This document shows positions 19,401-33,865 of a DNA stretch of 34,645 nucleotides, piece by piece; positions within the stretch are counted from its first letter, which is position 1, and each line of letters starts with the position of its first letter. Below the pieces are notes generated by a model. That model worked only from the letters and a program-made list of their open reading frames with translations, did not search any database and was not told the DNA's origin. A program made the translations under genes and the position numbers. Origin of the DNA: Candidatus Nanohaloarchaea archaeon (lineage in GTDB: Archaea; EX4484-52; GLR71); assembly GCA_030594675.1 (NCBI GenBank), contig JAUVES010000002.1, forward strand, positions 1 through 34,645, written 5' to 3'.

Positions 19401-22400
19401 CCAATAGCATAACCATCTTCGCCTTCGGTTTTGAGTGTGTTGTTGGCAATTACATTGTAACTGCTTGATAAAACAAGATTGATTGCATCAGTACCGATAC
19501 CTTTCGCTACAATAGTGTTGTTTGAGGCGGTGTTTAAATTGCTTGATGACTTAAAACGTATTCCGCAACTCCATTGTCCCAATGTTGTAATACTGTTATT
19601 TGTTATATTGCTATTTTCCGTCTCTAATGTATAAATCGCATACGCATTTGAAGATGTTCCTCCCTGGACAATGTTCAGGTTCTTGATTGTGATGTTGTCA
19701 TAGCCTCCGGAGTCATATATTGCATAGCCAACTGCAGATTGCGAATAGTTTATCGTATAGCCATCACCGTCAAGAGTTATATTATCAGCAGCAATCGTAA
19801 AACAAGTACCTGTCGATGAGACATTATTCAATAGCTTATAATAACCGTTTTCTACTGATAGTGTCTGGCAAGAGACCACACCATAAGGAAGTGTACTATT
19901 CACTGTAAAATACATCATATCTGTTGAATTCATATTCCCGAAAGTGTCATTGCAGTAAAAGGTAACATTGTGAGACCCTTCACTAACTGTTGTCAGGTTG
20001 TTCCAGTTGCCTGAGGAGTATGTCATTGTTGCGTTTGCCACACCATCCAGAGAATAGCCGCACCACGACCCCTCCTCATTCAGTGTGGCATTGAACCAGA
20101 TAGACTGTGTGTAGTATGTTTCATTTTCCGGAGACTGCGAAGTAACTATAATATTTGGCAGCGAACCGACCTTTACCTGCACAAAATCAACTTCACAACC
20201 TTCCCCGCTACCCATGGTATCGCCTTCTGACATGAGTACAAGCTGCTTGTTTCCGCCAACTATATTAGAAATGCCATCTGTATAAACTACATTCGCAGTA
20301 ACATACCCTGCACCGAAATCAGCATCTGTAGCATAGAATCGCTCCCATGATGATGAGCTATAATTCCATATGATTGCAGCGCAGTCCTCACCTGCTTTAT
20401 CTCCTGTAGAACGGTGCTTCATCGATATATAGCCCCACTCTATCAAATCAGCACCCAGGTCAGTTGTAAAATTGAACCTGAAAAATGGCTCATCATTTGA
20501 TGTGCCGCTTGTTGTGTTGGCAGGCTGGTTATCATCTGAAGACAGCCATGTGTATTCCTGTAAGCTTACTAATGAACCTGTCCAGCCGTCTCCGCTTGCT
20601 GGCGGCTGTAAAAGCCCGCCCTGGGTCTCATCCTTGTATGCCTTGTTGCCTGAAGTGTCAGAAAAGTTGTAGTAAAAAACACGCTGCACAGATGAGGCCT
20701 TAACCACTGATATTTCAGTGTTTCCATTAAGGAGAATAGTAAATGCAGAAAGAGCTCCATTAGAATCTGTAACCAGCGTGTAAGAGTTTGTCTGGCCGCT
20801 CCCTAATGTGTTATAGACCTTGTATATTGTGGTTGGTGACAGGCCTTCAAGAGTGTACTCTGTTGTTATTCCGGATGTCGAATTTGTATCATTCCATTTT
20901 ACTTCTGATTCAGACCATGTGACAAGAGTCCTGTTTATTAAGCTTGCTGCCGAAACCTTTGTCTTGAGCCAGATATTGCCGTCAGTTTCGTTGTTGTAGA
21001 TGAACTGATAAGTTGCGCCATTGATGTAGATGCTTCTTTGTGCGGTGAAATTTGTGTTTCTGAAATTATTTGGAGTGTCATAAAGATAATAGTCGTAACT
21101 TTGCAGGGACCTGATTGACCCGCCTGTGAAATTATTTGAACTTCCAGTTACCATATTAACGCCGTAAGTCTGGGCACCTGTTCCCAATATGCTATTATTT
21201 ATCAAAACATTGTCGTATGAACCTCCATTAAAATAAGTAGCATCACTTAGGTCGCCTGTCGATACTATGTTGTTGTTTATGATAATGTTCCAATCGGCAG
21301 CTTCAAATACTATGCCGTCACCGACAGCGGTGATATTGTTTCCAGAGGCATTTACATTATATGCTGAATCAAGATATAGTCCTGATCCTGATGATGTGAT
21401 TGAGTTATTTGAAACCACCGTAAAAATCCAATTTAAATTAATGTATATGCCAATACTAGAGTCATAAGTAGTAATATTATTTTTAGTTATATTATTTCTA
21501 TACGATCCAAAATCATAAATTGCATGGGCATATTTTCCGTAAGTGATTATAGTATTATTTGTTGTGCTTGTATTTTCGGCAACAATATCTATACCTCTGC
21601 CCCAATCTCCATATGTCGTGATGGTGTTATTTGATATCAGGTTCCTGTAGTTGAATGGGGCCTGGATTCTGATGCCATAGCTGTAATTCCCTATTGTCGT
21701 AATGTTGTTGTTGGTGAATATGCTGTCTTCTGTCCCTTTTGCAATGATTGCATATGAAGAATCATTCGCAAATCCCTGCACGAGATTCAGGTTCTTTACA
21801 GTGAGGTTGTCATAGCCTGCCGTATTGTTTATCCCGTAGCCAACAACTGACTGTGAGTAGTTTATAGTATACCCTTGGCCATCGATGGTGATGTTGTCTG
21901 CGGCTATCGTGAAGCAGGTTCCGGAGGAGGAGACATTGCCTACTAATTTGTATGTTCCGTTTTCTATTGTTAGATTCCTGCATGTATCTACATCATACAG
22001 GGATGCTTCTATTAATAAAAGACCTGTGTAATTTGTTACCCCCCCGCAATCGTTTTCAGTATGGCTCACAATTGGGTGTATTGATACCCGGCTCCCCGAA
22101 TATCCTGAAATTCTCGGAAAATATGATATGCTATCATCCGGACATCCTGTACAAGCATCATCTTTAACTATTCCACTCCACGAATATTCTGTCCCATTTT
22201 CAACAAAGCCCATTCTATACACATTAATCGGCGCTCCTGCTGCAAAAGGTTTTGTATCTGCCTGTCCAATATAAACAGGACTTCCACTAATATTTACATC
22301 TGTTCCTCCAGCACTACCACAGACATAATCATAAAACATGAAATAAACATAACCTGACTTTGTTGCATTCCATGTTATGTTTACATCATAAACCATGTAA

Positions 22401-22528
22401 TACCCTTCGGATATAAAAGTTACATTGTCTAATACGTCAGCATCAATATCATCAACATCTGCACTTGCTGTTGAACATAAAAAAATAAATGAAAACAACA
22501 ACAAAACAAAAAAACTCAATACTTTCAT
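7490..22528 (-). CDS. Giant secreted mosaic surface protein, 5,012 aa (beta-helix, Ig-like, LamG, beta-propeller, DUF2341, Gly-rich modules)
   Basis: Uninterrupted 15,039-nt ORF with ATG at 22528 and a Sec-type signal peptide. Recognisable modules are listed as separate features below. N-x-S/T sequons are very dense. There is no C-terminal TM helix, PGF-CTERM-like or other anchor motif that I recognise. All plus-strand ORFs inside it look like antisense artefacts. Confidence 0.9.
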   Translation of the reverse strand: MKVLSFFVLLLFSFIFLCSTASADVDDIDADVLDNVTFISEGYYMVYDVNITWNATKSGYVYFMFYDYVCGSAGGTDVNISGSPVYIGQADTKPFAAGAPINVYRMGFVENGTEYSWSGIVKDDACTGCPDDSISYFPRISGYSGSRVSIHPIVSHTENDCGGVTNYTGLLLIEASLYDVDTCRNLTIENGTYKLVGNVSSSGTCFTIAADNITIDGQGYTINYSQSVVGYGINNTAGYDNLTVKNLNLVQGFANDSSYAIIAKGTEDSIFTNNNITTIGNYSYGIRIQAPFNYRNLISNNTITTYGDWGRGIDIVAENTSTTNNTIITYGKYAHAIYDFGSYRNNITKNNITTYDSSIGIYINLNWIFTVVSNNSITSSGSGLYLDSAYNVNASGNNITAVGDGIVFEAADWNIIINNNIVSTGDLSDATYFNGGSYDNVLINNSILGTGAQTYGVNMVTGSSNNFTGGSIRSLQSYDYYLYDTPNNFRNTNFTAQRSIYINGATYQFIYNNETDGNIWLKTKVSAASLINRTLVTWSESEVKWNDTNSTSGITTEYTLEGLSPTTIYKVYNTLGSGQTNSYTLVTDSNGALSAFTILLNGNTEISVVKASSVQRVFYYNFSDTSGNKAYKDETQGGLLQPPASGDGWTGSLVSLQEYTWLSSDDNQPANTTSGTSNDEPFFRFNFTTDLGADLIEWGYISMKHRSTGDKAGEDCAAIIWNYSSSSWERFYATDADFGAGYVTANVVYTDGISNIVGGNKQLVLMSEGDTMGSGEGCEVDFVQVKVGSLPNIIVTSQSPENETYYTQSIWFNATLNEEGSWCGYSLDGVANATMTYSSGNWNNLTTVSEGSHNVTFYCNDTFGNMNSTDMMYFTVNSTLPYGVVSCQTLSVENGYYKLLNNVSSTGTCFTIAADNITLDGDGYTINYSQSAVGYAIYDSGGYDNITIKNLNIVQGGTSSNAYAIYTLETENSNITNNSITTLGQWSCGIRFKSSSNLNTASNNTIVAKGIGTDAINLVLSSSYNVIANNTLKTEGEDGYAIGMYSSSCNYNTISNNNITASGDDGYGVYLSGWSNVNNILNNNISAEYCIYFYQSHSNIISNNIITSPYIGIFFEEGYYTTISYNSIISKWQSLLLYNSRTNVISDNNLTTTNSSATIELWYGHYNTILNNTITNTGGGLAMDFDASDVNTISDNTIATTSSGSLRAILVSAFYADEYSDYNNISGNIITTTGNNTRAFQIDNGRYNIVSDNNITTSNTSSKGIYLTGEDCYSNTIADNNVVTENTSSYGVHIYLAISNNITGGSIISKQGYDYYLRDAGATNKFVNTNFTALRKIYFYDNTSWFVYNNETGGDLWLKTSVSAASSLNRTLSNWTEIQMMWNDTNSTQGINVTYNVTGLRTSTSYLITNTTDATSTSQELQTDSDGKISFTISLDGNTQVMVELVDTTAPTYSLNSTNSTEAGTPIEFRLKWHDMLNATTQGNVSGYIFSWCNGVNQTYLNQTNDLETEERQYKGKLKLNDSVTFDDGAIPPLDWSMGGDINPAWQSTAPGYSGAYAAESNALINDSQDVWIKTNNMFYPTTGEISFWWNVSSESGFDYFGFCIDKNYGEGGCTWGSGTGLISGTVAWQKRTYTIFAGHHFFTWFYVKDGSLTEGADKGIIDEIKFISDEYPDTEADKYYVTYDNILTGDLLEQMNITVTINVSYYNNSGSANNGNNNPDLWLEMYTGSEWIGIGNMSIIGTGNFSKSTQNPTIANAWSNAANRNVRIKGKYFDYNSSSLYDQIDYTDVWVRIESEQEFFNDTWVQFPNAPVNESWSNVTKKVNSTVGATIKWKVYANDTSHNLNASDIYSFVTIDTLLPTITLDSSENNTYFSYVPYFNGTCTDNSGISRIWTNLSEYPAQYTTSPFSFTNDSVLTEGRYDVNITCNDSVDNQNSIAFWFTYDATQPNITFVPPTEDNSTLILTNHTYVNVSISDTGSPNNLTAFIDWNNSLVGWWRFNEETGENSTFFKDWSSYGNNGTCSGTICPDYTTGMFGKSLLFDGTNDYITIPDSNSLDLTNSFTIEGWFKPAETYSNISDYYQGLIDKGSYQLFLDKDGKLKFYLGSDSAKSWNALGSGMNDHVRSFAVWNGELYAGGYFTTAGGNPASKIAKWNGTGWSALGSGTNGAVFALAVWNGELYAGGYFWTAGGNTVDYIAKWNGTDWSPLGSGMGDGVHSLAVWDGELYAGGLFTTAGGNSADYIAKWNGTDWSALGSGVGNDVYSLAVWDGELYAGGDFITAGGNSADYIAKWNGTDWSALGSGVGNDVYSLAVWDGELYAGGWFTTAGGNSANYTAKWNGTDWSALGSGTSSDVFLLAVYNGELYAGGWFTTAGGSSANYTAKWNGTDWSPLGLGVTAFVNAFAVWNGELYVGGEFTTAGGNTANKTAKWSSGNEKVVSSATDSWSSDWKHFAITYDNSSLKMYIDSVLQSTQPASITPQVNTINLHIGDTYGSREGAYSGSGPEQFNGTIDEVRIHNRTLSPEEINASYNTGLYRVYHNFTNLSDGTYTYIAYAQDLAGNVNQTETRTLMIGDDTTYPQYSLNQTNSTEAGKDVLFSLYWEDNYALAGYIFSFDNGTGTFYNDSYAAMIGTESWSNVTKTVNSSIGSTIRWIVYANDTAGNMNTSEIFSFIITSSGDSTPPTITIESPENKSYNTQSIWFNATVADASGVDWCGYSLDGAENITMINSSGNWNNLSTVSEGSHNVTFSCNDTVGNMNSTTQYFTVDITQPFVEIILPENTTYPTTALDLNYTATDPYIDSVWYEYNSINTTLSGNTTFTAIDNQQSTLTLYANDTAGNQNQTSIAFTVDTIPPTIEFVPPTDTDNDYVNRNYSYVNVSVSDVLSPNNLTSFIDWNRSLVGWWRFNEETGENSTFFRDWSSWGNNGSCTGVNCSNYTDSGKFGKGMMFDGVNDYVRITDSSSLSPTDKISIEAWINPIENVMLGIVEKQNGSNNAYGFNYLNDYKLGFQINWGFPSVIACLSDTGSVNLNEWTHVVATYDLHLASDNMKVYVNGILNASCNYNNQIETLSNGYFDIGVNAGGGDEHFNGTIDEVKIYNRVLTPQEINASYNTGLYRLETNFTNLAEGTYTYTAYAQDLAGNVNQTDTRTITIDTTNPDIYFVPPTPDDGNTTSNDYTYINVTANDTNNITAFIDWNNSLVGWWRFNLEAGENDTFARDWSTYGNNGTLTNMNPGLDNCTGNCSGWTTSGKFGKALRFDGMNDYVDCGNDVSLNITDAITIEAWVKANADNNLRVASKHSGGGNYGWMLARGASSDNVEWRISTDGSDWNGGISNSDSFLVGNWYHIVASYDGSYMRVYINGAENTRDFPYSLTGNINIAPVTTKIGRDEYWQCGSSTCFNGTIDEVRIWNRALSPEEINASYNTGLYRLYHNFTDLEDGTYTYTAYAQDLAGNVNQTETRTITSTNIILTESLTQTLVIPGDSVTVIGHATYTADGTPVANNNMNLFLDGQAVSVINPGNYTPAGESQALWPYRKAITINGSTTEQTDYQVLVTLTSLNFNFLKANSDGNDTRFTSLNTISGIEQNISFWIEKWTANNALIWVKVPSIADNGNTTLYMYYGNPSASSSSNGTATFKFFDDFEGGTLNAWQQVGKGVIDSTYVRGGSYSMKVQGLDSCDVSESERAISNNFTSTHSLVFDYWFQGRVAAGNQPYSYLFEDSNNFVKFEVDTQPHAVMYTRFGVTEGGSSIGWTSDAGNFPANTWHHAKTIVSGTNIKWYFDTVDATTLRGEMTNAAIANLDFINVHLIGRCSSGYYDDVRVRKYTSIEPTVILVGAEQNAIITNSTGGYSYTFIAPVIVGNYTLKVNLTDSNNIIGSNETNFTVIINLQSPNAKGVNTGTSSVNVGETVNISVNIPLSNIKYPTVNISQVWTNVSNSSESYIYFLSGDVSGGTWYDDTFSSLALGQYNVSFYANLTDGFNTATIINTTFAVKQIEITETLTPLIVNSGENVTVFGQAMLQPDNTNIVNNSINIFLDGQLVNVINPGNYTPAGESQALWPYRKAIIINGSTTEQTDYQVLVNLTSLNFNFTKANSNGNDTRFTSLNTISGIEQNISFWIENWTANNALIWVKVPSIADNGNMTLYMYYGNPEAPSLSDYFNVMDFYGDGSSGPLTVSYANTVINTYTYLTGNENTGDNIIAVNSGTAFSDGDEILIIQMQNSSGGAAGTYEFKKIDSGGGTTTLTLDTSLKNNYTSGTFDSTTSTVTQVVRVPQYTSVTVDSWASITAPAWDGYKGGIVVFRANGIVNIQGTINVTAKGYRGGVGGTWGSWPGNAVGIQGESYQGKGTANRFVNLGGGGGGQQISSPRNDRAGGGGGGHGTTGSDGTAQSVSEYRGRGGTTYGSSDLSTTFLGSGGGGGSNGGPTAFGGAGGGIVMVYSSLVTGSITAKGGDWVSGGEGQAGGAGGSIFMTANNISSLTTNTSYGLGQPVACCGESGGNGGYGRIRLSAYSISESSTPSAYTQGFDTEHNRKYTVPEPTILSVGAEQNAAVTNSTGGYNYTFIAPQTAGIHTVKINLTNANGIYAENTTNFTVLSDDSTPPTIIIQSPENKSYNTTSTWFNITLDEAGDWCGYSLDGTANVTMTNSSGNWNNLSIVSEGSHNVTFFCNDTLGNMNSTTKYFTVDITKPTITIFEPTSTTTDDNTPHINATQSDLYPDSMWYAIDGGTNITGAWTTAIDANTTILSESTHYITVYANDTAGNMNSTTIYFEVDALAPQITIIYPPTEMHGGDTWFNSSLDQRVSWCGYSLDGAQNITMANDTQLDYYRFVFGISRGSHSVVFWCNNTFGVYASKTRNFEITSGFVVVKFVGSGFSPVEDTAAKYVATNFAGGTLAGLIHAGGTFNNVSSGANYMALTQGILAEGKSAKAYVVYSKGDISSIERRIPYIQSGEIEKMPNPSFGFGIDKIYRIQTGLEYNNINFNNKEKMGEGQHMVVVHNWGEDENNKHLIGVWEK
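9010..9590 (-). other. Polyglycine-rich domain
   Basis: KGYRGGVGGTWGSWPGNAVGIQGESYQGKGTANRFVNLGGGGGGQQISSPRNDRAGGGGGGHGTTGSDG...LGSGGGGGSNGGPTAFGGAGGGIVMVYSS...GGEGQAGGAGGSIFMT...CCGESGGNGGYGRIRLSAY. On the plus strand it appears as C-rich runs (ccgccgcc, ccaccgcccccccc). Confidence 0.6.
10093..10408 (-). repeat. DUF2341 cassette, copy B
   Basis: Same as copy A. The plus-strand artefact ORFs 10113-10304 and 11691-11882 translate almost identically, which independently shows the duplication. Confidence 0.85.
11671..11986 (-). repeat. DUF2341 cassette, copy A (316-nt near-identical intragenic repeat)
   Basis: Encodes INPGNYTPAGESQALWPYRKAITINGSTTEQTDYQVLV...DTRFTSLNTISGIEQNISFWIEKWTANNALIWVKVPSIADNGNTTLYMYYGN. 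It matches 10093-10408 with about 11 mismatches in 316 nt (hand alignment) at an in-frame offset of 1,578 nt. Confidence 0.85.
12250..12950 (-). other. LamG/ConA-like domain 3
   Basis: LVGWWRFNLEAGENDTFARDWSTYGNNGTLTN...FGKALRFDGMNDYVDCGND...ITIEAWVKA...WYHIVASYDGSYMRVYINGA...FNGTIDEVRIWNRALSPEEINASYNTG. Confidence 0.7.
13190..13850 (-). other. LamG/ConA-like domain 2
   Basis: LVGWWRFNEETGENSTFFRDWSSWGNNGSCTG...FGKGMMFDGVNDYVRITD...ISIEAWINP...WTHVVATYD...MKVYVNG...FNGTIDEVKIYNRVLTPQEINASYNTG. Confidence 0.7.
14930..16560 (-). other. LamG/ConA-like domain 1, interrupted by the propeller insertion
   Basis: The N-part is LVGWWRFNEETGENSTFFKDWSSYGNNGTCSG...FGKSLLFDGTNDYITIPDSNSLDL...FTIEGWFKP. 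The C-part is WKHFAITYDNSSLKMYIDSV...FNGTIDEVRIHNRTLSPEEINASYNTG. Both align to the uninterrupted domains 2 and 3. Confidence 0.7.
15239..16195 (-). repeat. Seven tandem 138-nt (46-aa) coding repeats = predicted 7-bladed beta-propeller
   Basis: The consensus unit is KWNGTDWSALGSGxxxxVxxLAVWxGELYAGGxFTTAGGNxAxYIA, seven times. Units at 15573-15710 and 15711-15848 differ at about 10 of 138 positions in my hand alignment. Confidence 0.8.
18420..19875 (-). other. Right-handed parallel beta-helix module 2 (longer paralogue of module 1)
   Basis: CQTLSVENGYYKLLNNVSSTGTCFTIAADNITLDGDGYTINYSQSAVGYAI..., followed by more turns than module 1. It ends with the same cap, NTNFTALRKIYF...NNETGGDLWLKTSVSAAS. 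Confidence 0.7.
20930..21985 (-). other. Right-handed parallel beta-helix (PbH1/NosD-like) module 1
   Basis: CRNLTIENGTYKLVGNVSSSGTCFTIAADNITIDGQGYTINYSQSVVGYGI..., followed by many ~22-aa N-N-I/T-rich turns (NNNITT, NNTITT, KNNITT, NNSITS, GNNITA). It ends with NTNFTAQRSIYI...NNETDGNIWLKTKVSAAS. Confidence 0.7.
22460..22528 (-). other. Sec-type signal peptide of the giant protein
   Basis: MKVLSFFVLLLFSFIFLCSTASA|DV: one Lys, a hydrophobic core and an AxA-type cleavage motif. It is not a class III (pilin) signal. Confidence 0.7.
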
Positions 22529-22660: not shown

Positions 22661-23128
22661 TTAGTTTACTTCCGTCCCTTCAATTGTAAACGATATAGTC
22701 GGGCATTCTGTGGGGATTATACGCACAGCAGATATAGTGTCGATTGTGTCTGTGTCAATCTGCAATGACACAGGCAGCTCATCACCCGCATATAGCGTGT
22801 ATTTGTTTGTGAACATCGTAGAATTTGAATTTGCGGCTATTACGCGGATTTTCTCAACAGTCAGTGTGCGCGTTCCTGTGTTTTTAAGGTTGAATTTAAG
22901 CTTTTCTGTGCCTGATGAATTAAAATATATGTTTCTTGCATCTATACTTGCATATACACAACCCGGATCTGAATTGTTAACGGCATTTTCTGTTTGTGTT
23001 TTTGCAGTCTGGCTCATCCAAGAGGATACAAAACCTGCAATCGCTATGGTGAATGCAATCATAAGAATACTTGCAAGTATTGGAGAAATTCCTTTTTTTT
23101 TGCAAAATGAAACCATACGGAAAACCAT
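22661..23128 (-). CDS. Archaeal type IV pilin-like protein (155 aa)
   Basis: The N-terminus MVFRMVSFCKKKG|ISPILASILMIAFTIAIAGFVSSW is a class III signal: a basic stretch, Gly, then a ~20-aa hydrophobic helix. ATG 23128 overlaps the upstream TAA (TAATG). The ATG at 23116 is an alternative start. Confidence 0.8.
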   Translation of the reverse strand: MVFRMVSFCKKKGISPILASILMIAFTIAIAGFVSSWMSQTAKTQTENAVNNSDPGCVYASIDARNIYFNSSGTEKLKFNLKNTGTRTLTVEKIRVIAANSNSTMFTNKYTLYAGDELPVSLQIDTDTIDTISAVRIIPTECPTISFTIEGTEVN

Positions 23129-23634
23129 TAAATCGGACCGTTTAAGTCTAAATTCTCACTTCCGGCAAGTGAGGACCAGCCGCTTACCGGCTTCCAGACG
23201 GTTGTTGATACAGCTTCGCAGCGGGTTGTAAATTTTATCTGTGTTAATTCCCCGCCGCCTGCAAGTGGAATAGAAAGATTCAGGTTAACATCCACACCGC
23301 TTTCCTTTGGTAGTGTGCCATTCATTTTATATGGCTTTATCGGCGTGTCGTCGACCCATACCTGAAAACCGGTAAGTGCCACATCAACAGAACCGGTATT
23401 AACGATATAATCCTGAAAAATCTTGGTTGACATGTTAATGCGTGCAAAATCGGGATCCGCACGGATGCTTTGATAAACACAATCTATTTTTTCCTCAAAT
23501 ACTTGTGTTTTTTCTTTTTGGTCTGTTGTAAAATTAGATATCCATGTAGTGAGAATGGCTGCAACCGCCATAGTAAATGCAATCAAAAGAACTGCCGCAA
23601 TTAAGGGGCTTATACCTTTTCTTGTTAGTCTCAT
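23128..23634 (-). CDS. Archaeal type IV pilin-like protein (168 aa)
   Basis: I moved the start to ATG 23634, giving MRLTRKG|ISPLIAAVLLIAFTMAVAAILTTWISNF. The longer track ORF adds 14 unlikely residues. Confidence 0.8.
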   Translation of the reverse strand: MRLTRKGISPLIAAVLLIAFTMAVAAILTTWISNFTTDQKEKTQVFEEKIDCVYQSIRADPDFARINMSTKIFQDYIVNTGSVDVALTGFQVWVDDTPIKPYKMNGTLPKESGVDVNLNLSIPLAGGGELTQIKFTTRCEAVSTTVWKPVSGWSSLAGSENLDLNGPI

Positions 23635-23700
23635 AATAATCACTCCGTGTATTAAAGTATATATGACCATACCCAATATATAAAGATTATTGATAATCGG

Positions 23701-24174
23701 CTAACTGCTTCTACAGCCATTTGTTGTGTTTTCGAGATTATTGTTAAATCGTATTATTACATTTTTACATACTGAGACAACATCTGCAAGCAAAAAGTCA
23801 TCACAATTATTGAATATATTGCATGTATTGTTTTTCGCGGTTGCAAAATCACCAACATCAAGCATTGAATCATCAAAATCAAGGTTGCATGGATCGTAAT
23901 TTTTATTATATATTGATGCTTCTGTGAGGTTTATCGAGACATCTCCTGTGTTTTGTATGGTTATTGCGGCGCTTTCTCCAAATACAATACCCACAGAAAT
24001 GATTTCTGCCCGCGCTGTTGAGCATATATTTCTTGTATCGTCCATATGGCCTGTTTTTTCCATGTTTGTATTTGCAAGCGGCGAGACCCAATTCATGACC
24101 ATAACAGAAATGCCTATGCTGAATGTTATCAACAGGATTGCAGCAATTAAAGGGGATACGGCTTTTTTTTTCAT
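23701..24174 (-). CDS. Archaeal type IV pilin-like protein (157 aa)
   Basis: MKKKA|VSPLIAAILLITFSIGISVMVMNWVSP, with a Cys-rich C-terminal domain. Confidence 0.8.
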   Translation of the reverse strand: MKKKAVSPLIAAILLITFSIGISVMVMNWVSPLANTNMEKTGHMDDTRNICSTARAEIISVGIVFGESAAITIQNTGDVSINLTEASIYNKNYDPCNLDFDDSMLDVGDFATAKNNTCNIFNNCDDFLLADVVSVCKNVIIRFNNNLENTTNGCRSS

Positions 24175-24233: not shown

Positions 24234-24704
24234 TTAACAAGATGTGTTTGTGCTTGTCCACTCGTCGTAGATTCCACCACAGGTGGTTGTTACTCTTGCC
24301 CTGCATACACCGCCGGACCAGTCAGGATTTACCGCAGTACAGTTTACAGGACCAAATGCCTCAAAGTCACCAACTTCAAGTGTTTGCTCAGTTGAGGATA
24401 TTTCACACGCAGCATTGGCGCTGTCAAAAGCAATAACCTTTTTTATGGTTGTATTCATCTGCCCGTTATTTTCAACATAAACGGTTACATTAAGATTACC
24501 TATTGTTGTAACCCCTGAGCTTGCAGGAATCTTAACAGTCTGCTTTGAACACGCTATTACTGTATCTGTGTTTGATGAAGCGCCTGCTGTTGTGTCTTTA
24601 GTGTATGTGTTCATCCAACTCATTATCATTGTTGATACTGCAACCGTAAACACGATTAAAAGTACAACCGCAATGAGAGGACTTACAGCTTTTCTTTTTG
24701 TCAT
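24234..24704 (-). CDS. Archaeal type IV pilin-like protein (156 aa), candidate major pilin
   Basis: MTKRKA|VSPLIAVVLLIVFTVAVSTMIMSWMNTYTK. GGGAGGT lies 8 nt upstream of the ATG, with its own TATA-like box upstream and a T-tract downstream. The C-terminal domain has paired Cys residues and ends in Cys. Confidence 0.8.
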   Translation of the reverse strand: MTKRKAVSPLIAVVLLIVFTVAVSTMIMSWMNTYTKDTTAGASSNTDTVIACSKQTVKIPASSGVTTIGNLNVTVYVENNGQMNTTIKKVIAFDSANAACEISSTEQTLEVGDFEAFGPVNCTAVNPDWSGGVCRARVTTTCGGIYDEWTSTNTSC

Positions 24705-24834: not shown

Positions 24835-25725
24835 TTACATTCCGGCGGTGATTGACATGACGGCATATCCAATAATCACAAGAAACATGGCGTGTTTTAT
24901 GCCTGCATCAATGGATCCCTCGGCAAGTTTTCCTATAGTTACTCCTGAAAAGAACCCTTGTATTATTGCAAGATGAGTAAACATTTTTTTGTATAATACC
25001 ACATCTATAGCACCTGCTTCTGTTGTTCCTGTAGAGCCGGTCATGAGATTTCCTACTGATGAGTCTACAGCCGACCATGAAAGTGCAGGGATCAGGAATT
25101 TCTGCATGCCCACCATCACGCCCAAGAATACAAAATAAATAATATACCCCTGCATCATCTGAGAAGATATTCTTGATGTCCGCTCGCGTTTTATTTTTTC
25201 AAGCTCTATTGTGGACTGCCCAACAGCATTTATAACTTCTGCAAGATTGCCGCCGGACCGGTGTGCCTCTATAATTGTCCTTACCGCCCGAGTGACTGTT
25301 TTGCTTTTAGTGGTTGATGCAAAGTTAATTATTGCTTTTTCAAAAGGCACACCCCACGAAATCTGGGCAATAAGCAGCCTTATTGGTTTTGTAAGGTTAC
25401 CATAATTGTTTTTGGAGGTATAATTGATTGCCACGGGCAAAGACATTCCCCCACGCAAACCCTCAACAATATCTCTTAAAAAATCAGGAAATCGCTCTTC
25501 TATGGTTTTTTGCTTTTGATATTTTGCGTATTTTACAAGCGTTAGTGGTATTACAAGAACAATTACTGCAAGAACATTAATTATGCTGTAAATTATATCC
25601 TGTTCAAACGGCGCGATATAAAATATGTTAAATCCATAAATGCTTGCGGCCCCACAAATAGACAATAAAATAGCATAAAACGAGTCCTTGTCAATTCCTA
25701 TTTTTTCGTAAATTGTTTTGACCAC
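24835..25725 (-). CDS. Type IV filament platform protein, single T2SSF domain (TadC/FlaJ-like)
   Basis: Polytopic membrane protein. RFPDFLRDIVEGLRGGMSLPVAINY...ISWGVPFEKAIINFA...IIEAHRSGGNLAEVINAV is the GspF/T2SSF cytoplasmic domain pattern. GTG start with AGGTGAT 5 nt upstream. Confidence 0.8.
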   Translation of the reverse strand: MVKTIYEKIGIDKDSFYAILLSICGAASIYGFNIFYIAPFEQDIIYSIINVLAVIVLVIPLTLVKYAKYQKQKTIEERFPDFLRDIVEGLRGGMSLPVAINYTSKNNYGNLTKPIRLLIAQISWGVPFEKAIINFASTTKSKTVTRAVRTIIEAHRSGGNLAEVINAVGQSTIELEKIKRERTSRISSQMMQGYIIYFVFLGVMVGMQKFLIPALSWSAVDSSVGNLMTGSTGTTEAGAIDVVLYKKMFTHLAIIQGFFSGVTIGKLAEGSIDAGIKHAMFLVIIGYAVMSITAGM

Positions 25726-25735
25726 TTATTATCAC

Positions 25736-26827
25736 CTATATGTCCGGCTGCGTATATGTTAAAAATGCTATAAATCCCATATTCAAAAGAGGTATCAAAA
25801 TATAAACCCCTAAAGATAAAAACGCGTCTATACTCATACCCCCGACATTTGAGCCGGGCACGATATTCATAACTGCAAGTATGGATACAAGAAACATAGG
25901 CGCTGCAATCAAAATTACCGTATATATATCTGCATATGTGGAGAGCGTTTCAACATATTTTTTTCTTTCAAGCTTGTAGTTGAATAATGCTATTTCCGCC
26001 ATCTCATTCAAATATTCTTTCATGTTTCCGCCGGATTCTATAATTGCCAGTATACCGTAAAGCAGTTCTTTAAAGCTTTCCGCTGGGGTTCTTTCAGCAA
26101 CATAATGAAGTGAAGTTGTTATGTCTTCCCCTAAAACTTTGATTCTTCGGACAATTGTCTTTGATTCTTCTGTTATGCCCCCATAGCTTCCGAATTCGAC
26201 AAGCATTTCAAATGACTTCTCAGGAGGGACGCCGGATGATGCAATTGCGGCCATATGATTTATTGCAAACGGCATATTTGTATCAATGCTTCTTTTTTTC
26301 TGAGATATTTTCTGGAACGGGTATACATAAAACAATAGAAAAACAAACGAAAAAACAGAAAACGGCACAACAATACAGCCAAAAAGAGCGATAACAAACG
26401 ACAAATTAAGCATAAAAGCACTTGCAACAATTGCCCCGAAAGTAATGGTGGCTGCAATAGATGCTGCTGCGGTCATGATGCCCACATATGTTTCCGGAAT
26501 AATTCGCATATCCGAATCTTCAATTGTTTTTTTGAGCGGTGTAAAATATTCAGGATATATAAGTATTATGTTTGAAAAAAGGCGATTTGCAAGGGCGCGT
26601 GAGCTTTTTACATCCCGGACAGAAACAAGTGTCTTTATAATCTGTGCAGGAAACAAAAGAAGCATTTTAAAATAATTTTTTTTCTTTTTAATTTTTAACA
26701 GATTCAAATCCATAAGGTCTTGCTTTAGCTGGTCGACATCACTTAGGTGCTGTGGTTTTGTATTGCCGGAATTTAATTTGAAACGAACTTGTTCGGCCAA
26801 TGTTTTTTTATTTTTTCCCATATGCAT
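25736..26827 (-). CDS. Type IV filament platform protein, single T2SSF domain (TadB/FlaJ-like)
   Basis: NMPFAINHMAAIASSGVPPEKSFEMLVEF...LLYGILAIIESGGNMKEYLNEMAEI plus several TM helices. It ends 10 nt before the next platform gene. Confidence 0.8.
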   Translation of the reverse strand: MHMGKNKKTLAEQVRFKLNSGNTKPQHLSDVDQLKQDLMDLNLLKIKKKKNYFKMLLLFPAQIIKTLVSVRDVKSSRALANRLFSNIILIYPEYFTPLKKTIEDSDMRIIPETYVGIMTAAASIAATITFGAIVASAFMLNLSFVIALFGCIVVPFSVFSFVFLLFYVYPFQKISQKKRSIDTNMPFAINHMAAIASSGVPPEKSFEMLVEFGSYGGITEESKTIVRRIKVLGEDITTSLHYVAERTPAESFKELLYGILAIIESGGNMKEYLNEMAEIALFNYKLERKKYVETLSTYADIYTVILIAAPMFLVSILAVMNIVPGSNVGGMSIDAFLSLGVYILIPLLNMGFIAFLTYTQPDI

Positions 26828-27545: not shown

Positions 27546-27631
27546 ATTTTTCAGTTCTTTAAGAAAAATATATATACTACCCACAACAAAAATAATATAT
27601 TGATATAGTACGATAGCGATTGGTGCCTTTT

Positions 27632-29558: not shown

Positions 29559-32500
29559 CTAACACCCGCTTGGGCTTCCTGTAAATTCAGCTGAAACACC
29601 GGTGCAGTCAGTGTATGCCTTTAAAGCCAGGAATTCTAAACACCCCATACCGCAGCCGGACACTGCAAACATGCCGCCAACATCAAATGTTGTTGAGTCG
29701 TTCTTCAAGACGCAATAAGTCCCGTCCTTCTTAAATGCAACAACCTGCTTGACTGTGACATTGTTCATTCCTGTGTTTGATACTAATGCAGAAAGCAAGA
29801 GCATCTTTACTGAATAATCCACCGCTCCAGAATCGATATATATTGTGATTGTGTTCTCACCAACTGTGAAGTTGCCTGCGTCGACTGTTATGGTTGCAGT
29901 CGCGCCATTGGAAAGGGTTCCTGAATAATTTACTGTTGGATTTCCGTTAAATGATACGCGCGGGTTTGTTGTATCTGCGTCCAAATCCGCTGTGTTGTAA
30001 GTATTTGCAATCTCTGCCTGTGATAATGCCGTATTGTAAACCCTCACTTCATCAATAGTCCCTGTAAATGAGTTTCCGACAACAAACGCGTCATCGTTTG
30101 TATTTATTGCCGTTGAATAATCAGCAGTTACAGATTCAACGCTGTTTACATACAGTTTCATCTCGTCTGTCCCGCCTGCGCTTCGGTTATAAGTTAACGC
30201 AATATGGTTCCATCCGGCAGATATTGTGGCTGTTATTGTCTGATTGTTTATCCTTGCAACAGCGTGCGTTGCATTTGCGTTGATTGCATACGCATTGCCT
30301 TTCGAAATGCCGTTCGCGATTTCCGCGCCGATTGAAAGGATTGTTGGTTCTGTAGAAGCGTATTTGCGGATGCGGACATCATCTGCATAATCGTCTCTAA
30401 CGCCAGCCCATGAATCTGAATATATTCCAATTTGTGTGCATGCGGTAGCATCTGTATCCGTGCCCGTAATTCTTGATATTCCGTCAATATATACAGTAAA
30501 GAAACCATCAGATGTTCTGGTTATGTCATAAGTATGCCAACTCCCTGTTGCCTGTGCATAAATGGAACCAATTTGCCCAGATGGACCAGACAACACAACC
30601 CCCCCACTTGCTACTTTCAATCTAAATTTGCGTGTATCACCATTCATAATGAACTCGAAGAAAATACCATTATTGTCTCCGCCATTAGAACATTTTAGTC
30701 GTGCATGCCATCCTGAGTAGGTGCCAGAAGACGCTGTTTTTTTACCGATTCCATATGTACCATCCGTTCTATACAGATGCATTGCCTTGACTTGTGGTGC
30801 GTTATCAACAATATCAACAGTTCCGCCATGAGAGTTAAGAATTGTAGTCCACGCGGGATTGATAGTATAGTCCCCATCCTCAAAATCATCAAAGAATTCA
30901 AATGTCTCAGTCCCATTACTATCTGTGCCCGCCCCCGCATTCCCATAATACATATAAACAGTATTGTCTGCCGCGCCCGCATAAATTTCTGGAACCTCAA
31001 CCCAGAATGTTGAGTTGCCGCTTGTTGTGGAGCAGTTCTCAGTCCAGAAGTCAATCGCTTCTTCTACCCCTGTCGTTTGGTTGAGCCATGTGAATCGCGT
31101 GTCGTTGCAGTACTTTTGTATTTTACCGAAATCGTAAAGCTCGGATGTGTTTATGCTGTCAATCTTTATCTGGTAGTCTGTAAGATATGTGTCTTCTGCG
31201 GATGTTTCCAAGACTGTTGGTTCAGTGGTGGTGTATTTTCGGACAAAAACATCATAATAACAGACATCAACAACATTGCTGCTAGAACTATATTTGACCT
31301 TGAATCTCATACAATTACCAAATGTTCCTGTGGTGTTTTCTCTTATTTCCATACGACCAGATATTCCATTCCATCCAATATATGAAACATCCCCTAAATT
31401 TCCGCTTTTAGAGCCTTCAAAAAATATCGATCTGTCAAAAAGATTTATGGTTTTGTAGTTCCACTCACTTGCATTTTTCATGATAGTATATTTGTAAAGA
31501 ACATTCGTTAAAGGTGCCCCAGTATTTGTCATATCTATATAGTCAGAATTAAGTCCGTACTGTATACCTCCGGGATTATGTCCGCCGCCATAATCTTGAC
31601 CAATCATAGAATAAACATTCGGAGTTGTGTCTGCCATAATGCCAAAATCATGAGCCCCATGATATGTGAATTGTCCATAACCGCTACCGAAATCTTCAAA
31701 TAATGTGGACAGCACATAACTGTCTGAATTTCCTATTGTAAAACCAAGAGTTTTATAATCAACTTCATCGTCACGGCTCCAATCAGCAAAATCATCTGCG
31801 GAGTCATAGAAATCAAAAGTCGCAGTCCCGTTGCTCTCTGTACCCGCTCCCGACTTCCCATAATACATATAAACCGTATTGTTCCCGGTTGTAAGGTTTG
31901 CCTTTACCCAAACGCTTGCATTGTCCTGCGAAAAATTCTGTTCAACCCAGTATGGCAGTTCTGTTTGTGTGCCTGTTGTGTCATTGAAATATGTAAAGCG
32001 CAAATCCTTGAATGTGTCGTTCATGCCCGAAACCCATGAAACTGTGTAGTTGAACTGATAATCAGTCAAATCTGTTGTTGTGTTGACTATTATCGCTTTT
32101 CTTTTAGTCCAGGAAGAATTCCACCACGCGTCGCGCGCATCCTGTATGTATATTGGCGTTTTGTATGCCCATTCAGAATAAACGCCGCCTGAAGAAGGGC
32201 TCACCCACGCAGACAAGGTAATAGCATCAGTCATGTCAAGCGCGGCATCATCAGCAACAGCAACATAATCATCCCCGTCAAACTGCAACGCAGCATTGAA
32301 TTTGCCGGATGCATTATATGCGGCGCCAGTAACAGTTCCTGTATTCCCATTGCCCGAAGAATCCAAAGCATTGCCATCAAAATGCCACCAGCCGGCAAGA
32401 CCGTTGATGCCGGAAGACGAACTGCGCCCGGTAAATGTGATTGTGGGCGTTCCGGCGATTGAAGTCAGATTGAAGTAATTAACAGTGCCGGACACAACAG

Positions 32501-32729
32501 AATTATTCGCTGCAACTACTGTGTTCTTTAAATTAACATTAGAAATTTCAACAATTGAATTAGCGCAATAAGTAATCCCTTTCTCGCCTGTTGCCGACTC
32601 TGTCGCAGCATCAGTGGTCGCCTTTGTGTAATCAAACATCCATGAAACAATCAAAGTGCTTATAGCCACAGTAAAAACAATAAGAAGAACAACAGTTATA
32701 AGAGCCGATATTCCTTTCTTTGGCGCCAT
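29559..32729 (-). CDS. Pilin-adhesin fusion: class III signal peptide/pilin N-terminus + LamG + two DUF2341/ConA-like cassettes + LamG + pilin C-terminal domain (1,056 aa)
   Basis: I moved the start to ATG 32729, giving MAPKKG|ISALITVVLLIVFTVAISTLIVSWMFDYTK, nearly the same helix as the pilin at 24234-24704. LamG 1: LAGWWHFDGNALDSSGNGNTG...FNAALQFDGDDYVAV...ITLSAWVSP. DUF2341 x2: WTKRKAIIVNTTTDLTDYQ...YMYYGKSGAGTESNGTATFDFYD and YLTDYQIKI...DTRFTWLN...YMYYGNAGAGTDSNGTETFEFFDDFEDG, each followed by a ConA-like region ending in RKY(T/A)xxEPT. C-terminal LamG: WNHIALTYN...MKLYVNSV...FTGTIDEVRVYNTALSQAEI. The last ~75 aa align to the small-pilin C-terminal domain. Confidence 0.85.
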   Translation of the reverse strand: MAPKKGISALITVVLLIVFTVAISTLIVSWMFDYTKATTDAATESATGEKGITYCANSIVEISNVNLKNTVVAANNSVVSGTVNYFNLTSIAGTPTITFTGRSSSSGINGLAGWWHFDGNALDSSGNGNTGTVTGAAYNASGKFNAALQFDGDDYVAVADDAALDMTDAITLSAWVSPSSGGVYSEWAYKTPIYIQDARDAWWNSSWTKRKAIIVNTTTDLTDYQFNYTVSWVSGMNDTFKDLRFTYFNDTTGTQTELPYWVEQNFSQDNASVWVKANLTTGNNTVYMYYGKSGAGTESNGTATFDFYDSADDFADWSRDDEVDYKTLGFTIGNSDSYVLSTLFEDFGSGYGQFTYHGAHDFGIMADTTPNVYSMIGQDYGGGHNPGGIQYGLNSDYIDMTNTGAPLTNVLYKYTIMKNASEWNYKTINLFDRSIFFEGSKSGNLGDVSYIGWNGISGRMEIRENTTGTFGNCMRFKVKYSSSSNVVDVCYYDVFVRKYTTTEPTVLETSAEDTYLTDYQIKIDSINTSELYDFGKIQKYCNDTRFTWLNQTTGVEEAIDFWTENCSTTSGNSTFWVEVPEIYAGAADNTVYMYYGNAGAGTDSNGTETFEFFDDFEDGDYTINPAWTTILNSHGGTVDIVDNAPQVKAMHLYRTDGTYGIGKKTASSGTYSGWHARLKCSNGGDNNGIFFEFIMNGDTRKFRLKVASGGVVLSGPSGQIGSIYAQATGSWHTYDITRTSDGFFTVYIDGISRITGTDTDATACTQIGIYSDSWAGVRDDYADDVRIRKYASTEPTILSIGAEIANGISKGNAYAINANATHAVARINNQTITATISAGWNHIALTYNRSAGGTDEMKLYVNSVESVTADYSTAINTNDDAFVVGNSFTGTIDEVRVYNTALSQAEIANTYNTADLDADTTNPRVSFNGNPTVNYSGTLSNGATATITVDAGNFTVGENTITIYIDSGAVDYSVKMLLLSALVSNTGMNNVTVKQVVAFKKDGTYCVLKNDSTTFDVGGMFAVSGCGMGCLEFLALKAYTDCTGVSAEFTGSPSGC

Positions 32730-32770: not shown

Positions 32771-33865
32771 TCAATCAAACAGGTCTTCAAAATACTCATA
32801 ACCTAATACATATATATCGCTTCCGGACTGCATTTCAACAGGAAGGGACGGGACATGTATGAATGATGCAATACCCAAATCATTATCTGTATTGTTTTTT
32901 CCTTCAAGCCTGCTTAAAAATGACGGTGCATCCCTTTTATTGAAATAGCACGAAGCATTTGGCTGATTTGTAATGTTTGTAAGCCAGACTGTTTCATTGT
33001 CAATAACCATAATAGAATTGTTGAGAATTATGTTTTTTGCATTAGTTACATTAAACACATATGGGGGTGCTACAGGTGCGCTGTTTTGTTCCGCCACAAT
33101 TCCGGCAAAGCCATTAAAATTTGATTTTCCGACAATTGTTCCTGTAACAAGCACTTTATCTGCTTTGCCGGTCACATTTAAAAGATCATTTTCGTCACTT
33201 ATGTATGCGAACCCATAGACCCAATCGCCGCTGTTTGCACTGCCTGTAATTTTTTCGCATTCAATGAAATTCTGCTTTGCATACCCGTAGCTTTTTACGG
33301 TTATAAATGGGTCCTCAAGATTTTTAACAGATACTATGTTTGAGTAGGTTGTGTTTCTTTTGTATGCGACCTCAATTATTTCATCCTGCGCTCTTATGTG
33401 TGCGTTGGTTGAAACGCGTATTGTATATGGCGACTCCATTGAAACGGTTGTGTTTGGAACAAGGATTGTTGTTTTAAGCCCTCTTTTTTTAGCCAATGTT
33501 TCTAAGGTTTGCATCCAATCAGATATCGTGTTGTTTTCCATAAGTGTGAGGTTCTCATTGCCGTTGTTTACGGTGCCGTTAATAATGGCTTCTTTTACAG
33601 ACTCATTTGCAACATTGACAAACTTGCCGTTTGAAATCTCCCAATTAATCAAAGCCAATAATGCGCGCCTGCCGGATATCTCTCCGCTTCTTTCAATATC
33701 TTTTTCAATACCTACAACAAGATAATGCACTTCATCGGCACGAATCTTTTCAATAATCTTTGTTGTATGTGTGCTTGTCTTATCCATGTTTAATGCCAAA
33801 ACAAGAAAAATAGAAGACACTACAACAATAGTAAACATGGTATATACAAACCCTTTTTTCATCAT
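32771..33865 (-). CDS. Hypothetical secreted/membrane-anchored protein with pilin-like N-terminus (364 aa)
   Basis: I moved the start to ATG 33865, giving MMKKG|FVYTMFTIVVVSSIFLVLAL, with GGTG upstream and an ATGA overlap with the upstream stop. The rest is N/T/V-rich with many sequons. The function is not recognisable. Confidence 0.6.
   Translation of the reverse strand: MMKKGFVYTMFTIVVVSSIFLVLALNMDKTSTHTTKIIEKIRADEVHYLVVGIEKDIERSGEISGRRALLALINWEISNGKFVNVANESVKEAIINGTVNNGNENLTLMENNTISDWMQTLETLAKKRGLKTTILVPNTTVSMESPYTIRVSTNAHIRAQDEIIEVAYKRNTTYSNIVSVKNLEDPFITVKSYGYAKQNFIECEKITGSANSGDWVYGFAYISDENDLLNVTGKADKVLVTGTIVGKSNFNGFAGIVAEQNSAPVAPPYVFNVTNAKNIILNNSIMVIDNETVWLTNITNQPNASCYFNKRDAPSFLSRLEGKNNTDNDLGIASFIHVPSLPVEMQSGSDIYVLGYEYFEDLFD

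Follow-up and report, generated by a model that had tools for sequence, protein, structure and literature searches.

A likely adhesin-bearing type IV pilin of a DPANN archaeon, with a lectin-like payload nested inside its pilin domain

Within the 34.6-kb window (the whole stretch of DNA analysed, 34,645 nucleotides), one gene of this DPANN (Aenigmarchaeota-like) archaeon encodes a 1056-aa protein that is, in our judgement, likely to be a minor type IV pilin doubling as an adhesin, with a payload nested in its pilin domain and a place most likely at the tip. We infer both its polymerisation and its tip or decorating position; most likely it can polymerise into the co-encoded type IV pilus and acts there as an adhesin subunit, probably at the tip. 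As mapped on the sequence, a pilin domain (D1) encloses a second beta-sandwich (D2), which encloses a LamG domain, which in turn encloses the payload, so that the nesting is three levels deep. The gene coordinates given in the initial annotation were right. The parts of the protein, in the order of its residues, and the neighbouring genes that bear on it are as follows.

29559..32729, (-): modular pilin gene, 1056 aa, stop codon at 29559-29561; open reading frame and start codon, Pfam DUF2341 twice and Laminin_G_3, TIGR02537 above cutoff
32712..32729, (-): class III signal peptide leader MAPKKG, residues 1-6, with predicted cleavage after Gly6; sequence, and alignment with the small pilins' KRKA followed by VSPLIAVV
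32589..32711, (-): pilin alpha-1 helix, residues 7-47; 63% identity to the 156-aa pilin; helix at 9-47 and 9-43 in the two AF2 models
32529..32588, (-): linker and first beta-strand of D1, residues 48-67, with conserved Cys55; hhalign with the small pilin's C52 strand; the P0124 and small-pilin alignments end here
32427..32528, (-): N-terminal part of D2, residues 68-101, ending in PTITFTG; kept in all family members and in free-standing 117-aa N-half pilins; strands 83-88 and 96-101
32190..32426, (-): N-terminal third of the LamG (Laminin_G_3), residues 102-180; Pfam profile positions 2-33; pLDDT >90 in the full-length model; breakpoint 179/180 against P0004, P0009 and P0115
30342..32189, (-): payload inside the LamG, residues 181-796, in which a ~200-aa, possibly ConA-like region comes after each of two DUF2341 cassettes; Pfam, homologous cassettes elsewhere; low pLDDT
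31791-32012 and 30846-31109, (-): the DUF2341 matches within the payload; Pfam
29985..30341, (-): C-terminal two thirds of the same LamG, residues 797-915; Pfam profile positions 29-151; pLDDT about 90; Foldseek matches to ConA-like lectin modules, that of S. sanguinis PilC among them
29805..29984, (-): C-terminal part of D2, residues 916-975; family conservation from TxNP[KR]xS on; breakpoint 917-920 against P0008 and P0108; strands in both models
29562..29804, (-): remainder of the D1 beta-sandwich, residues 976-1056, with a VSNTG motif, five Cys and a C-terminal PSGC; hhalign E=6e-9; breakpoint 981 against P0124 and P0129; pLDDT about 90 in the mini-construct
24234..24704, (-): 156-aa small pilin, the scaffold's nearest paralogue and a candidate for the major pilin; BLASTP; family profile against 8FK7, E=6e-4
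22661..24174, (-): three further small pilins (22661-23128, 23128-23634, 23701-24174); Pfam Pilin_N just under cutoff; mutual BLASTP E=1e-8 to 1e-14
24835..26827, (-): two TadC/FlaJ-like platform genes (T2SSF domain); Pfam PF00482, E=4e-16 and 2e-18
7490..22528, (-): 5012-aa Sec-secreted giant protein, the second large DUF2341 protein of the locus; LamG and DUF2341 cassettes in common with the 1056-aa pilin

The reading frame is open up to 32774, and the plausible start is the ATG at 32729, which gives MAPKKG followed by ISALITVV. A short basic leader and then a hydrophobic helix (MAPKKG followed by ISALITVVLLIVFTVAISTLIVSW) make up a class III signal peptide, with prepilin-peptidase cleavage predicted after Gly6. 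TIGR02537, the NCBIfam model of the archaellin/type IV pilin N-terminal domain, scored 21.6 bits against a cutoff of 20; Pfam Pilin_N reached just 15 bits, under its cutoff of 25.2. A promoter and terminator scan, made with a sigma-70 model that is not applicable to archaea, stayed at background level. By BLASTP, 27 of 43 N-terminal residues are identical to those of the 156-aa pilin (63%, E=2e-13), in agreement with the closeness noted earlier for the first ~40 residues. Since identity to the three remaining small pilins is 37-43%, this similarity indicates a specific paralogy and not a generic hydrophobic helix.

At the other end of the protein, pairwise similarity to the 156-aa pilin is weak (30% over 61 aa, E=8e-5). 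When profiles were compared instead (17 small-pilin sequences against 7 members of the large-pilin family), hhalign matched the small-pilin family to the C-terminal 137 aa with a probability of 95.9% and E=6e-9 over 91 columns; against the concatenated N and C parts, the match spanned pilin residues 3-154 with E=6e-22. The last ~95 residues are homologous to the beta-sandwich of the 156-aa pilin, so that the protein has the globular beta-sandwich, homologous to bona fide pilins, by which archaeal type IV pilins are recognised. The six Cys of the small pilin correspond, in order, to C55 in the N part and to five Cys in the C part (C1006/1026/1030/1042/1056), the last of which is the C-terminal residue, as in the small pilin. 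Aligned with the four small pilins, both termini are thus significantly similar, the C part weakly in pairs and significantly by profiles, and the initial annotation was borne out both on its alignment of the C-terminal domain and on the shared terminal Cys. The small-pilin family profile itself matches a solved structure, the Pyrobaculum archaeal type IV pilus subunit 8FK7 (E=6e-4). Searched against PDB sequences, the profile of the N+C splice gave marginal matches only, to the archaeal pilins 8GI2 and 8FK7 (E~0.07), and neither the C-terminal 137 aa nor the N+C splice had a credible Pfam match, just a sub-threshold Lipocalin_4.

The insertion had been placed between the N-terminal helix and the C-terminal domain. 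The hhalign comparison, P0124 and the breakpoints instead map the payload behind the first beta-strand (Cys55), in the beta1-beta2 loop, from residue ~67 to ~976. P0124 belongs to a more distant subfamily; its residues 4-62 align with residues 6-61 of the small pilin P0097 (E=7e-21) and its residues 496-574 with 67-149 (E=1e-8), which places the insertion at small-pilin residues 61-67 and ties both ends unambiguously to the small pilins. Comparison with relatives yielded one pair of breakpoints for each nesting level, at 76 and 981 (P0124, P0129), at 101 and 917-920 (P0008, P0108), and at 179 and 805 (P0004, P0009, P0115). At the level of its sequence, the protein is a domain-inserted pilin, with an extra domain between beta-strands and pilin sequence on either side.

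The middle had been described as a LamG, two DUF2341/ConA-like cassettes and another LamG. The two DUF2341 cassettes are there (PF10102 twice, 115.5 bits by Pfam), and homologous cassettes are present in the giant neighbour and in many DUF2341 proteins. The LamG, by contrast, is a single split domain. When residues 102-180 and 797-915 were spliced, they gave a single Laminin_G_3 match (PF13385) over positions 2-151 of 151, at 66.9 bits against a cutoff of 27.6, and a full-length match above cutoff was reached solely once the two halves were joined. The spliced domain also aligned end to end with the intact LamG copies of the giant protein (E=8e-26). These results rule out two separate LamG domains; one LamG is broken at profile position ~30 by ~615 aa. 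The ConA-like label of the cassettes' second halves is weak, their hhalign match to LamG being at the level of motifs with a probability of 38%. A Foldseek search with the LamG model found the neurotoxin Hc-N domain, the trans-sialidase lectin domain and the lectin module of S. sanguinis PilC (7oa8/7oa7, E~5e-5).

Structure prediction with AF2 was applied to the full-length protein and to a mini-construct, an artificial splice of N(1-101) and C(920-1056) modelled with an alignment of full-length relatives and small pilins. The mini-construct gave a confident fold (pLDDT 82.8, pTM 0.64), which is only partly independent of the homology claim because the small pilins were in its alignment. In this model the first strand of D1 begins at residue 60, and two long strands, 60-78 and 152-167, traverse both sandwiches. 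The top 50 Foldseek matches of the mini-construct in the PDB held no pilin and consisted of generic tandem beta-sandwiches of GH2 enzymes (TM ~0.22). The full-length model was poor (pLDDT 57, pTM 0.38). It did not predict beta1, the first strand of D1, and residues 40-71 and the cassette halves (300-518, 596-800) fell below 50 pLDDT; at such low pLDDT this model neither confirms nor refutes the packing of the scaffold. Both LamG halves reached about 90 pLDDT or above in it.

At least seven relatives keep N(1-101) and C(920-1056) around unrelated middles, among them fibrinogen_C, Gly-rich regions and sets of DUF2341. The shortest complete relative is P0004, with 633 aa. All are in DPANN MAGs, frequently outside pilus loci, and the architecture recurs in several samples, on contigs independent of one another; at least nine copies are present in one MAG, and related contigs carry tandem arrays. 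This supports the view that the two ends, as read from their sequences, behave as a single conserved scaffold in which the middle is exchanged. The earlier picture of a pilin scaffold with a large lectin-like payload is upheld in that a pilin N-terminus and C-terminal domain flank the payload and relatives keep both ends; its topology had to be revised. Some related contigs encode the N part in one gene and the payload with the C part in the next, as in the pair 1857-2210 and 2252-3799 of L007; a 117-aa gene for the N-half pilin always stands immediately upstream of the payload gene. This provides a fusion/fission argument for an interaction of the two parts. Stop-codon read-through can be discarded for these split versions, since the frame of the downstream ATG varies between copies and every protein encoded downstream bears a Sec signal peptide of its own.

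The four small pilins and the two TadC-like genes lie 3-8 kb from the modular pilin gene on the same strand, and a tRNA and an oppositely oriented coiled-coil gene stand between them. A pair of such platform genes is characteristic of archaeal T4P system/clade 1, and the 1056-aa protein is a large DUF2341 protein in such a clade-1 locus with two TadC genes. Neither a secretion ATPase nor a prepilin peptidase is encoded in the window. The upstream genes 32771-33910 and 33862-34587 gave no family match and are not conserved neighbours in related loci.

We considered whether the similarity of the termini could be due to chance or to an assembly chimera, the protein being a plain secreted LamG/DUF2341 protein. 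Such a reading could draw on the C-terminal pairwise identity of just 30% and on the lack of a Pfam family for the C part, but it is refuted by the relatives, by the profile-profile values (E=6e-9 and 6e-22) and by the alignment of P0124 with P0097, as well as by the recurrence of the architecture on independent contigs of several samples with a conserved order of Cys; we regard it as scarcely credible. Rather improbable, though a good deal less so, is a surface adhesin that does not polymerise, in which the class III signal peptide and helix serve export and anchoring alone and the C-terminal sandwich is autonomous, docking for example on a pilus or S-layer. In P0126 and the L007/L002 genes the C-terminal domain belongs to Sec-secreted proteins that lack the pilin helix, so that synthesis of the C part does not depend on having alpha-1 and beta1 in the same chain, and the gene for the 1056-aa protein lies outside the pilin/TadC operon. 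Class III signal peptides on non-pilin proteins are moreover established in Sulfolobales, where the bindosome substrate-binding proteins of Sulfolobus are large, non-filament proteins with such peptides. Unlike those proteins, which are without a pilin globular domain, the 1056-aa protein retains a complete one, and the identity of its helix to that of a co-encoded pilin is well over the level common to other pilins. The strand missing from the C part is exactly the one supplied by the N part, the split versions invariably keep the N-half gene next to the payload gene, and the D1 parts are the best-conserved segments among tandem paralogues (94.6% DNA identity).

A polymerising subunit might also be incorporated at low frequency along the filament, with D2 as a stalk pointing the payload radially, and not sit at the tip. 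The scaffold derives from the putative major pilin rather than from a specialised minor pilin, D2 is modelled as a rigid extension of the beta1-beta2 hairpin, and a location in the filament body has been allowed for where the linker permits (PMC8179133). However, the payload of ~850 aa far exceeds an outer domain of ~110 aa, and steric arguments put ComZ and PilB at the tip. We hold decoration of the shaft to be unlikely, if still the strongest competitor of the tip adhesin that we favour.

For such a tip adhesin, the following sequence of events may be envisaged. MAPKKG would be removed by the prepilin peptidase, and the alpha-1 helix would join the filament core beside the major pilin. D1 would be reassembled from residues ~57-67 and ~976-1056, possibly stapled by a Cys55 disulfide, and would make normal subunit contacts, while D2, an extended beta1-beta2 hairpin, would be the stalk that keeps the ~90 kDa lectin-like payload off the filament. 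The bulk of the subunit makes the tip its most likely position, as argued for ComZ, GspK and PilB, and it would then be assembled first. The payload may bind to a ligand on a surface, probably a glycan displayed by a host cell or a substrate. By varying the payload on a constant scaffold, the paralogues would constitute a repertoire of specificities. More tentatively, and as a possibility to which we give the lesser weight, the pilin beta-sandwich may in this DPANN clade serve generally as a scaffold for the insertion and docking of a large, recombining adhesin repertoire, with split pairs that reassemble in trans and ends that mediate cassette exchange. Fused genes such as 29559-32729 would then display the payload within the beta1-beta2 loop. 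In the two-gene versions, the 117-aa truncated pilin (alpha-1, beta1 and the N-terminal part of D2) would combine with a Sec-secreted payload protein carrying the rest of the sandwich, by beta-strand complementation in trans, to give a 'split pilin' held together non-covalently. Paralogues, whether in tandem or dispersed, have near-identical 5' and 3' ends, and these ends and the orphan 3' remnants would mediate an exchange of cassettes that switches host or substrate specificity.

Precedents exist among the modular pilins of bacteria (PilB, PilC), the pilins with inserted domains (ComZ, GspK) and the DUF2341 adhesins predicted in archaea. The initial annotation had seen in a payload built into the pilin itself a contrast with bacteria, which is not supported: bacterial modular pilins are widespread, often with PF13385, among the commonest grafted modules (PMC8179133), and in ComZ and GspK the pilin fold is interrupted by inserted domains, a tip position being argued for both proteins on steric grounds (PMC6561018). 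As in S. sanguinis PilB (vWA) and PilC (ConA-like lectin), CofB and TcpB, a pilin module bears an adhesion module with a general domain signature. The likeness to PilC extends to its lectin module, which the LamG model matches, and to the proposed role as a tip-exposed adhesin. The bacterial proteins, however, have an IPR012902 N-terminus and a module grafted after the complete pilin module via a short linker, whereas the 1056-aa protein is archaeal and holds its payload within the pilin domain, in the beta1-beta2 loop and nested three deep. It combines a pilin module with domains that are not T4P-specific (PF13385, PF10102), as do the modular pilins of Raynaud et al. 2021, but has an archaeal-type leader in place of IPR012902 and its payload inside the pilin module rather than after it; it works like a modular pilin yet falls outside the class as they define it. 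With Thermus thermophilus ComZ and the T2SS pseudopilin GspK it shares an extra domain between beta-strands of the pilin fold. Both of these are bacterial, with a single inserted domain each, which in ComZ separates the last strand from the penultimate one and in GspK strand 3 from strand 4, rather than lying in the beta1-beta2 loop, and for neither has a swapped-insert paralogue family or a two-gene split version been described. The locus is of the same type as archaeal clade-1/system-1 (Epd-like) T4P loci, with its two TadC-like genes, several pilins and two large DUF2341 proteins. The large DUF2341 proteins of such loci (arCOG03508 and others) are predicted tip adhesins (PMC4858521); in contrast to the 1056-aa protein, the published ones are treated as accessory adhesins, with no split pilin sandwich, split LamG or payload swapping described.

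DPANN archaea are mostly obligate episymbionts. To our knowledge, none of their host-attachment adhesins has been identified so far. Pili are suspected in their interaction with the host (PMC9563170). The 1056-aa protein and its relatives are concrete candidates for such adhesins, each a pilin with its own exchangeable lectin-like head. The protein carries the idea of the modular pilin from bacteria to archaea, with a different topology. It is also a clear case, provided by nature, of domain insertion nested three times over, one sandwich enclosing another, the inner sandwich a LamG and the LamG the cassettes, and every level has its natural variants. The existence of fused and split gene pairs makes the proposed interaction of the N and C parts directly testable. 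At least nine paralogues in one MAG, and tandem arrays, are a large investment for a small genome, as would be expected of host-range determinants.

The large-pilin open reading frame runs from 32774 to 29559 on the minus strand, and the ATG at 32729 is a plausible start giving a protein of 1056 aa, with an N-terminus that reads MAPKKG followed by ISALITVVLLIVFTVAISTLIVSW... This pilin-type leader and helix exceeds the cutoff of the NCBIfam archaellin/type IV pilin N-terminal model. The gene lies among the following features:

1901-3109, minus strand: radical SAM gene
3099-4076, minus strand: DUF483-like gene
4107-5594, minus strand: radical SAM gene with a SPASM domain
5900-6898, minus strand: radical SAM gene
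6895-7509, minus strand: HxsD-like protein (TIGR03976 38 bits, below the cutoff of 50)
7490-22528, minus strand: giant 5012-aa Sec-secreted protein with LamG, DUF2341 and other modules, beyond the small pilins
22661-24704, same strand as and downstream of the large pilin: four small pilins, 155-168 aa
24835-26827, same strand as and downstream of the large pilin: two T2SSF/TadC-like platform genes
27469-27545, plus strand: tRNA-Glu(CTC), preceding the coiled-coil gene
27620-29551, plus strand, opposite to the pilus genes: Lys/Glu-rich protein of 643 aa, predicted coiled coil
32771-33910 and 33862-34587, minus strand: two family-less genes upstream of the large pilin

The pair of platform genes, the set of pilins and the two large proteins with DUF2341 make the locus match the described 'clade 1 / system 1' archaeal type IV pilus locus (PMC4858521; 2026 preprint). 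Genes for a secretion ATPase or a prepilin peptidase were not found within the window. The tRNA gene and the coiled-coil gene, whose product matched no Pfam or NCBIfam family, stand between the large-pilin gene and the TadC/pilin block. The two upstream genes are not conserved neighbours in related loci; the one at 32771-33910 opens in a pilin-like manner (MMKKG followed by FVYTMFTIVVVSSIFLVL), and its product may be a further protein with a class III signal peptide. The proteins most closely related to the small pilins come from organisms annotated as Candidatus Aenigmarchaeota or DPANN archaea. In GLR112, a DPANN MAG, the homologues of the 156-aa and 157-aa small pilins sit inside the ribosomal-protein/SecY supercluster (L003, 10001-11074), between an EMC3-like gene and S13; such a position hints that the putative major pilin is expressed constitutively and at a high level.

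The initial annotation had related both ends of the large protein to the 156-aa pilin (24234-24704), and both relationships were borne out. The first 43 residues are 63% identical to that pilin (E=2e-13) and 37-43% identical to the other three small pilins. The C-terminal similarity was marginal in pairwise comparison (30% over 61 residues, E=8e-5), and we therefore turned to profiles. A profile of 17 small-pilin homologues was compared by hhalign with one built from seven relatives of the large protein, cut to their last 137 residues; this gave a probability of 95.9% and E=6e-9 over 91 columns. Used as a single profile, the N part (residues 1-101) and the C part (920-1056) matched the small pilins with E=6e-22, covering small-pilin residues 3-154. 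The small-pilin profile itself matches 8FK7, the solved Pyrobaculum calidifontis archaeal type IV pilus subunit (E=6e-4), across the helix, the first strand and the V-x-N-x-G strand; the small pilins are therefore genuine archaeal pilins. Judged by these alignments, the pilin-like ends of the large protein are real, far beyond chance. The terminal Cys noted earlier is invariant in the large-pilin family, and many small pilins likewise end in Cys; P-[ST/E]-G-C is invariant at the C-terminus of all family members (window 29562-29573). So strong a conservation of the terminal Cys points to a modification, or to a disulfide within or between subunits.

The insertion had been placed between the helix and the C-terminal domain, which proved wrong. 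Of the six Cys in the small pilin, the first (C52) lies in the strand directly after the helix. Cys55 (in ...GITYCANSIVEISNV...) is its equivalent in the large pilin, whose C part has counterparts of the remaining five in the same order. P0124, a complete, more distant relative of 582 aa, aligns through residues 4-62 with residues 6-61 of the small pilin P0097 (E=7e-21), the Cys strand included, and through residues 496-574 with residues 67-149 (E=1e-8). Thus, the payload takes the place of about five residues in the beta1-beta2 loop, after the Cys strand.

BLASTP of the large pilin against all its relatives revealed three nested pairs of breakpoints:

1-76 / 981-1056 (relatives P0124, P0129): D1, the pilin beta-sandwich
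1-101 / 917-920 to 1056 (P0008, P0108): D2, a second beta-sandwich
1-179 / 805-1056 (P0004, P0009, P0115): LamG

What had been read as two LamG domains is a single LamG in two pieces. Residues 102-180 match positions 2-33 of the Laminin_G_3 profile and residues 789-908 match positions 29-151; spliced, the pieces give one match (2-151/151, 66.9 bits) and align as one continuous stretch with two intact LamG domains of the giant protein (E=8e-26 and 2e-23). The nested breakpoints and the split LamG together yield the order of modules: leader, alpha-1, D1 strand 1, D2 N part, LamG N-terminal third, two DUF2341 cassettes (~615 aa), LamG C-terminal two thirds, D2 C part and the rest of D1. The payload varies among relatives: P0008 is without any LamG, P0111 has an unbroken LamG, P0004 carries a fibrinogen-C-like domain within its LamG, and others have Gly-rich regions or differing DUF2341 sets.

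We modelled a mini-construct (residues 1-101 joined to 920-1056), using an alignment to full-length relatives and to small pilins in which the inserts dropped out. The model (mean pLDDT 82.8, pTM 0.64), which depends in part on the homology argument since its alignment included small pilins, places 14 strands after a helix at 9-47. Strands 60-78 and 152-167 (the second being native 970-985) are long and cross both sandwiches, and the model fits a D2 that is an extension of the beta1-beta2 hairpin. A Foldseek search with it returned generic tandem beta-sandwiches only. The full-length model was poor overall (pLDDT 57, pTM 0.38), with residues 40-71 below pLDDT 50 and beta1 unpredicted; the C-part strands occupy the same positions as in the mini-construct. 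Both LamG pieces exceed pLDDT 90, a confidence hard to account for unless the two pack against each other. [quoted passage not shown]

In some related contigs, the two parts are encoded by adjacent genes:

L007, 1857-2210 with 2252-3799
L007, 2-184 with 190-1821
L002, 7884-8243 with 8251-9907
L006, 8001-8393 with 8400-10124 (the second gene leaves the contig, its C-terminus being unseen)

The first gene (117-130 aa) encodes the leader, alpha-1, beta1 and a D2-like N part (~55 aa), and always ends GQAYE-TGA (...LT(I/L)TGQAYE). The second starts within ~7 nt; its product has its own Sec signal peptide and a beta-propeller or beta-helix payload and, wherever its end is visible, closes with a D2-like C part and the rest of D1. 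The N part of the large pilin matches the free-standing N-half with E=3e-23, and its C part matches the relative P0126 with E=3e-15. Read-through as the source of the split versions is unlikely, because the frame of the downstream ATG differs among copies. The gene pairs show that the C part can be produced as a separate polypeptide; by the 'Rosetta stone' fusion/fission argument the N and C parts would work together, and the pairs suggest a pilin domain assembled in trans.

The family is narrowly distributed. Only 19 proteins matched the C-terminal 137 aa in an exhaustive phmmer search of 1.84 billion representative proteins, and of 185,579 species genomes scanned for its sequence pattern just two, both MAGs, had the C part. 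GLR112 (WSZW01 contigs) has 15 loci with the conserved 3' end (L010-L024), at least nine with a complete C part and some being short internal 3' remnants of 40-70 aa. Most copies hit contig ends, as expected because the conserved gene ends are repeated. The metagenomic contig L005 (2-6144) carries three family genes in tandem. Two of these have unrelated middles but are 86.7% identical in DNA sequence across the first 293 nt and 94.6% across the last 406 nt. Thus, the scaffold was retained while payloads were swapped. The scaffold has probably been homogenised among copies, and the pattern in GLR112 and L005 looks like concerted evolution or cassette exchange.

With 232 N-glycosylation sequons, the giant protein combines a Gly-rich region and DUF2341 cassettes with several LamG domains and with repeats resembling a right-handed beta-helix. 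In one of its LamGs, ~370 aa of Kelch-like WNGxxW...GG repeats separate the two pieces (~aa 1992-2072 and 2446-2532), an interruption of the same kind as in the large pilin; LamG therefore hosts an insertion twice at this locus. Directly downstream of the giant protein lies the radical SAM cluster (1901-7509), which resembles a His-Xaa-Ser-type peptide maturation system.

We propose that the leader of the large pilin is cleaved off and that its helix would enter the filament core together with the 156-aa pilin. D1 would be reconstituted from its two parts, possibly with a Cys55 disulfide, D2 would serve as a stalk, and the payload may bind a glycan or another surface ligand. A location at the filament tip is favoured by analogy, because bulk is argued to bar ComZ, GspK and PilB from the shaft; decoration of the filament is a live alternative. 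That the protein is instead a non-polymerising anchored adhesin is less likely, since the pilin domain is kept entire and no other part is as well conserved in the family.

Bacterial modular pilins, defined by a bacterial N-terminal motif, are widespread and often carry PF13385, the module following a complete pilin module (PMC8179133). In ComZ and GspK an inserted domain interrupts the pilin sheet (PMC6561018), at positions that differ from that in the large pilin. Large DUF2341 proteins of archaeal clade-1 pilus loci have already been proposed as PilY1-like adhesins (PMC4858521). In the literature searched, we found no archaeal pilin with its own sandwich split around a payload, no three-level nesting with natural intermediates, and no multigene family in DPANN archaea that conserves the scaffold, varies the payload and includes split two-gene versions. 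The large-pilin family is of interest mainly for the biology of host attachment in DPANN archaea.
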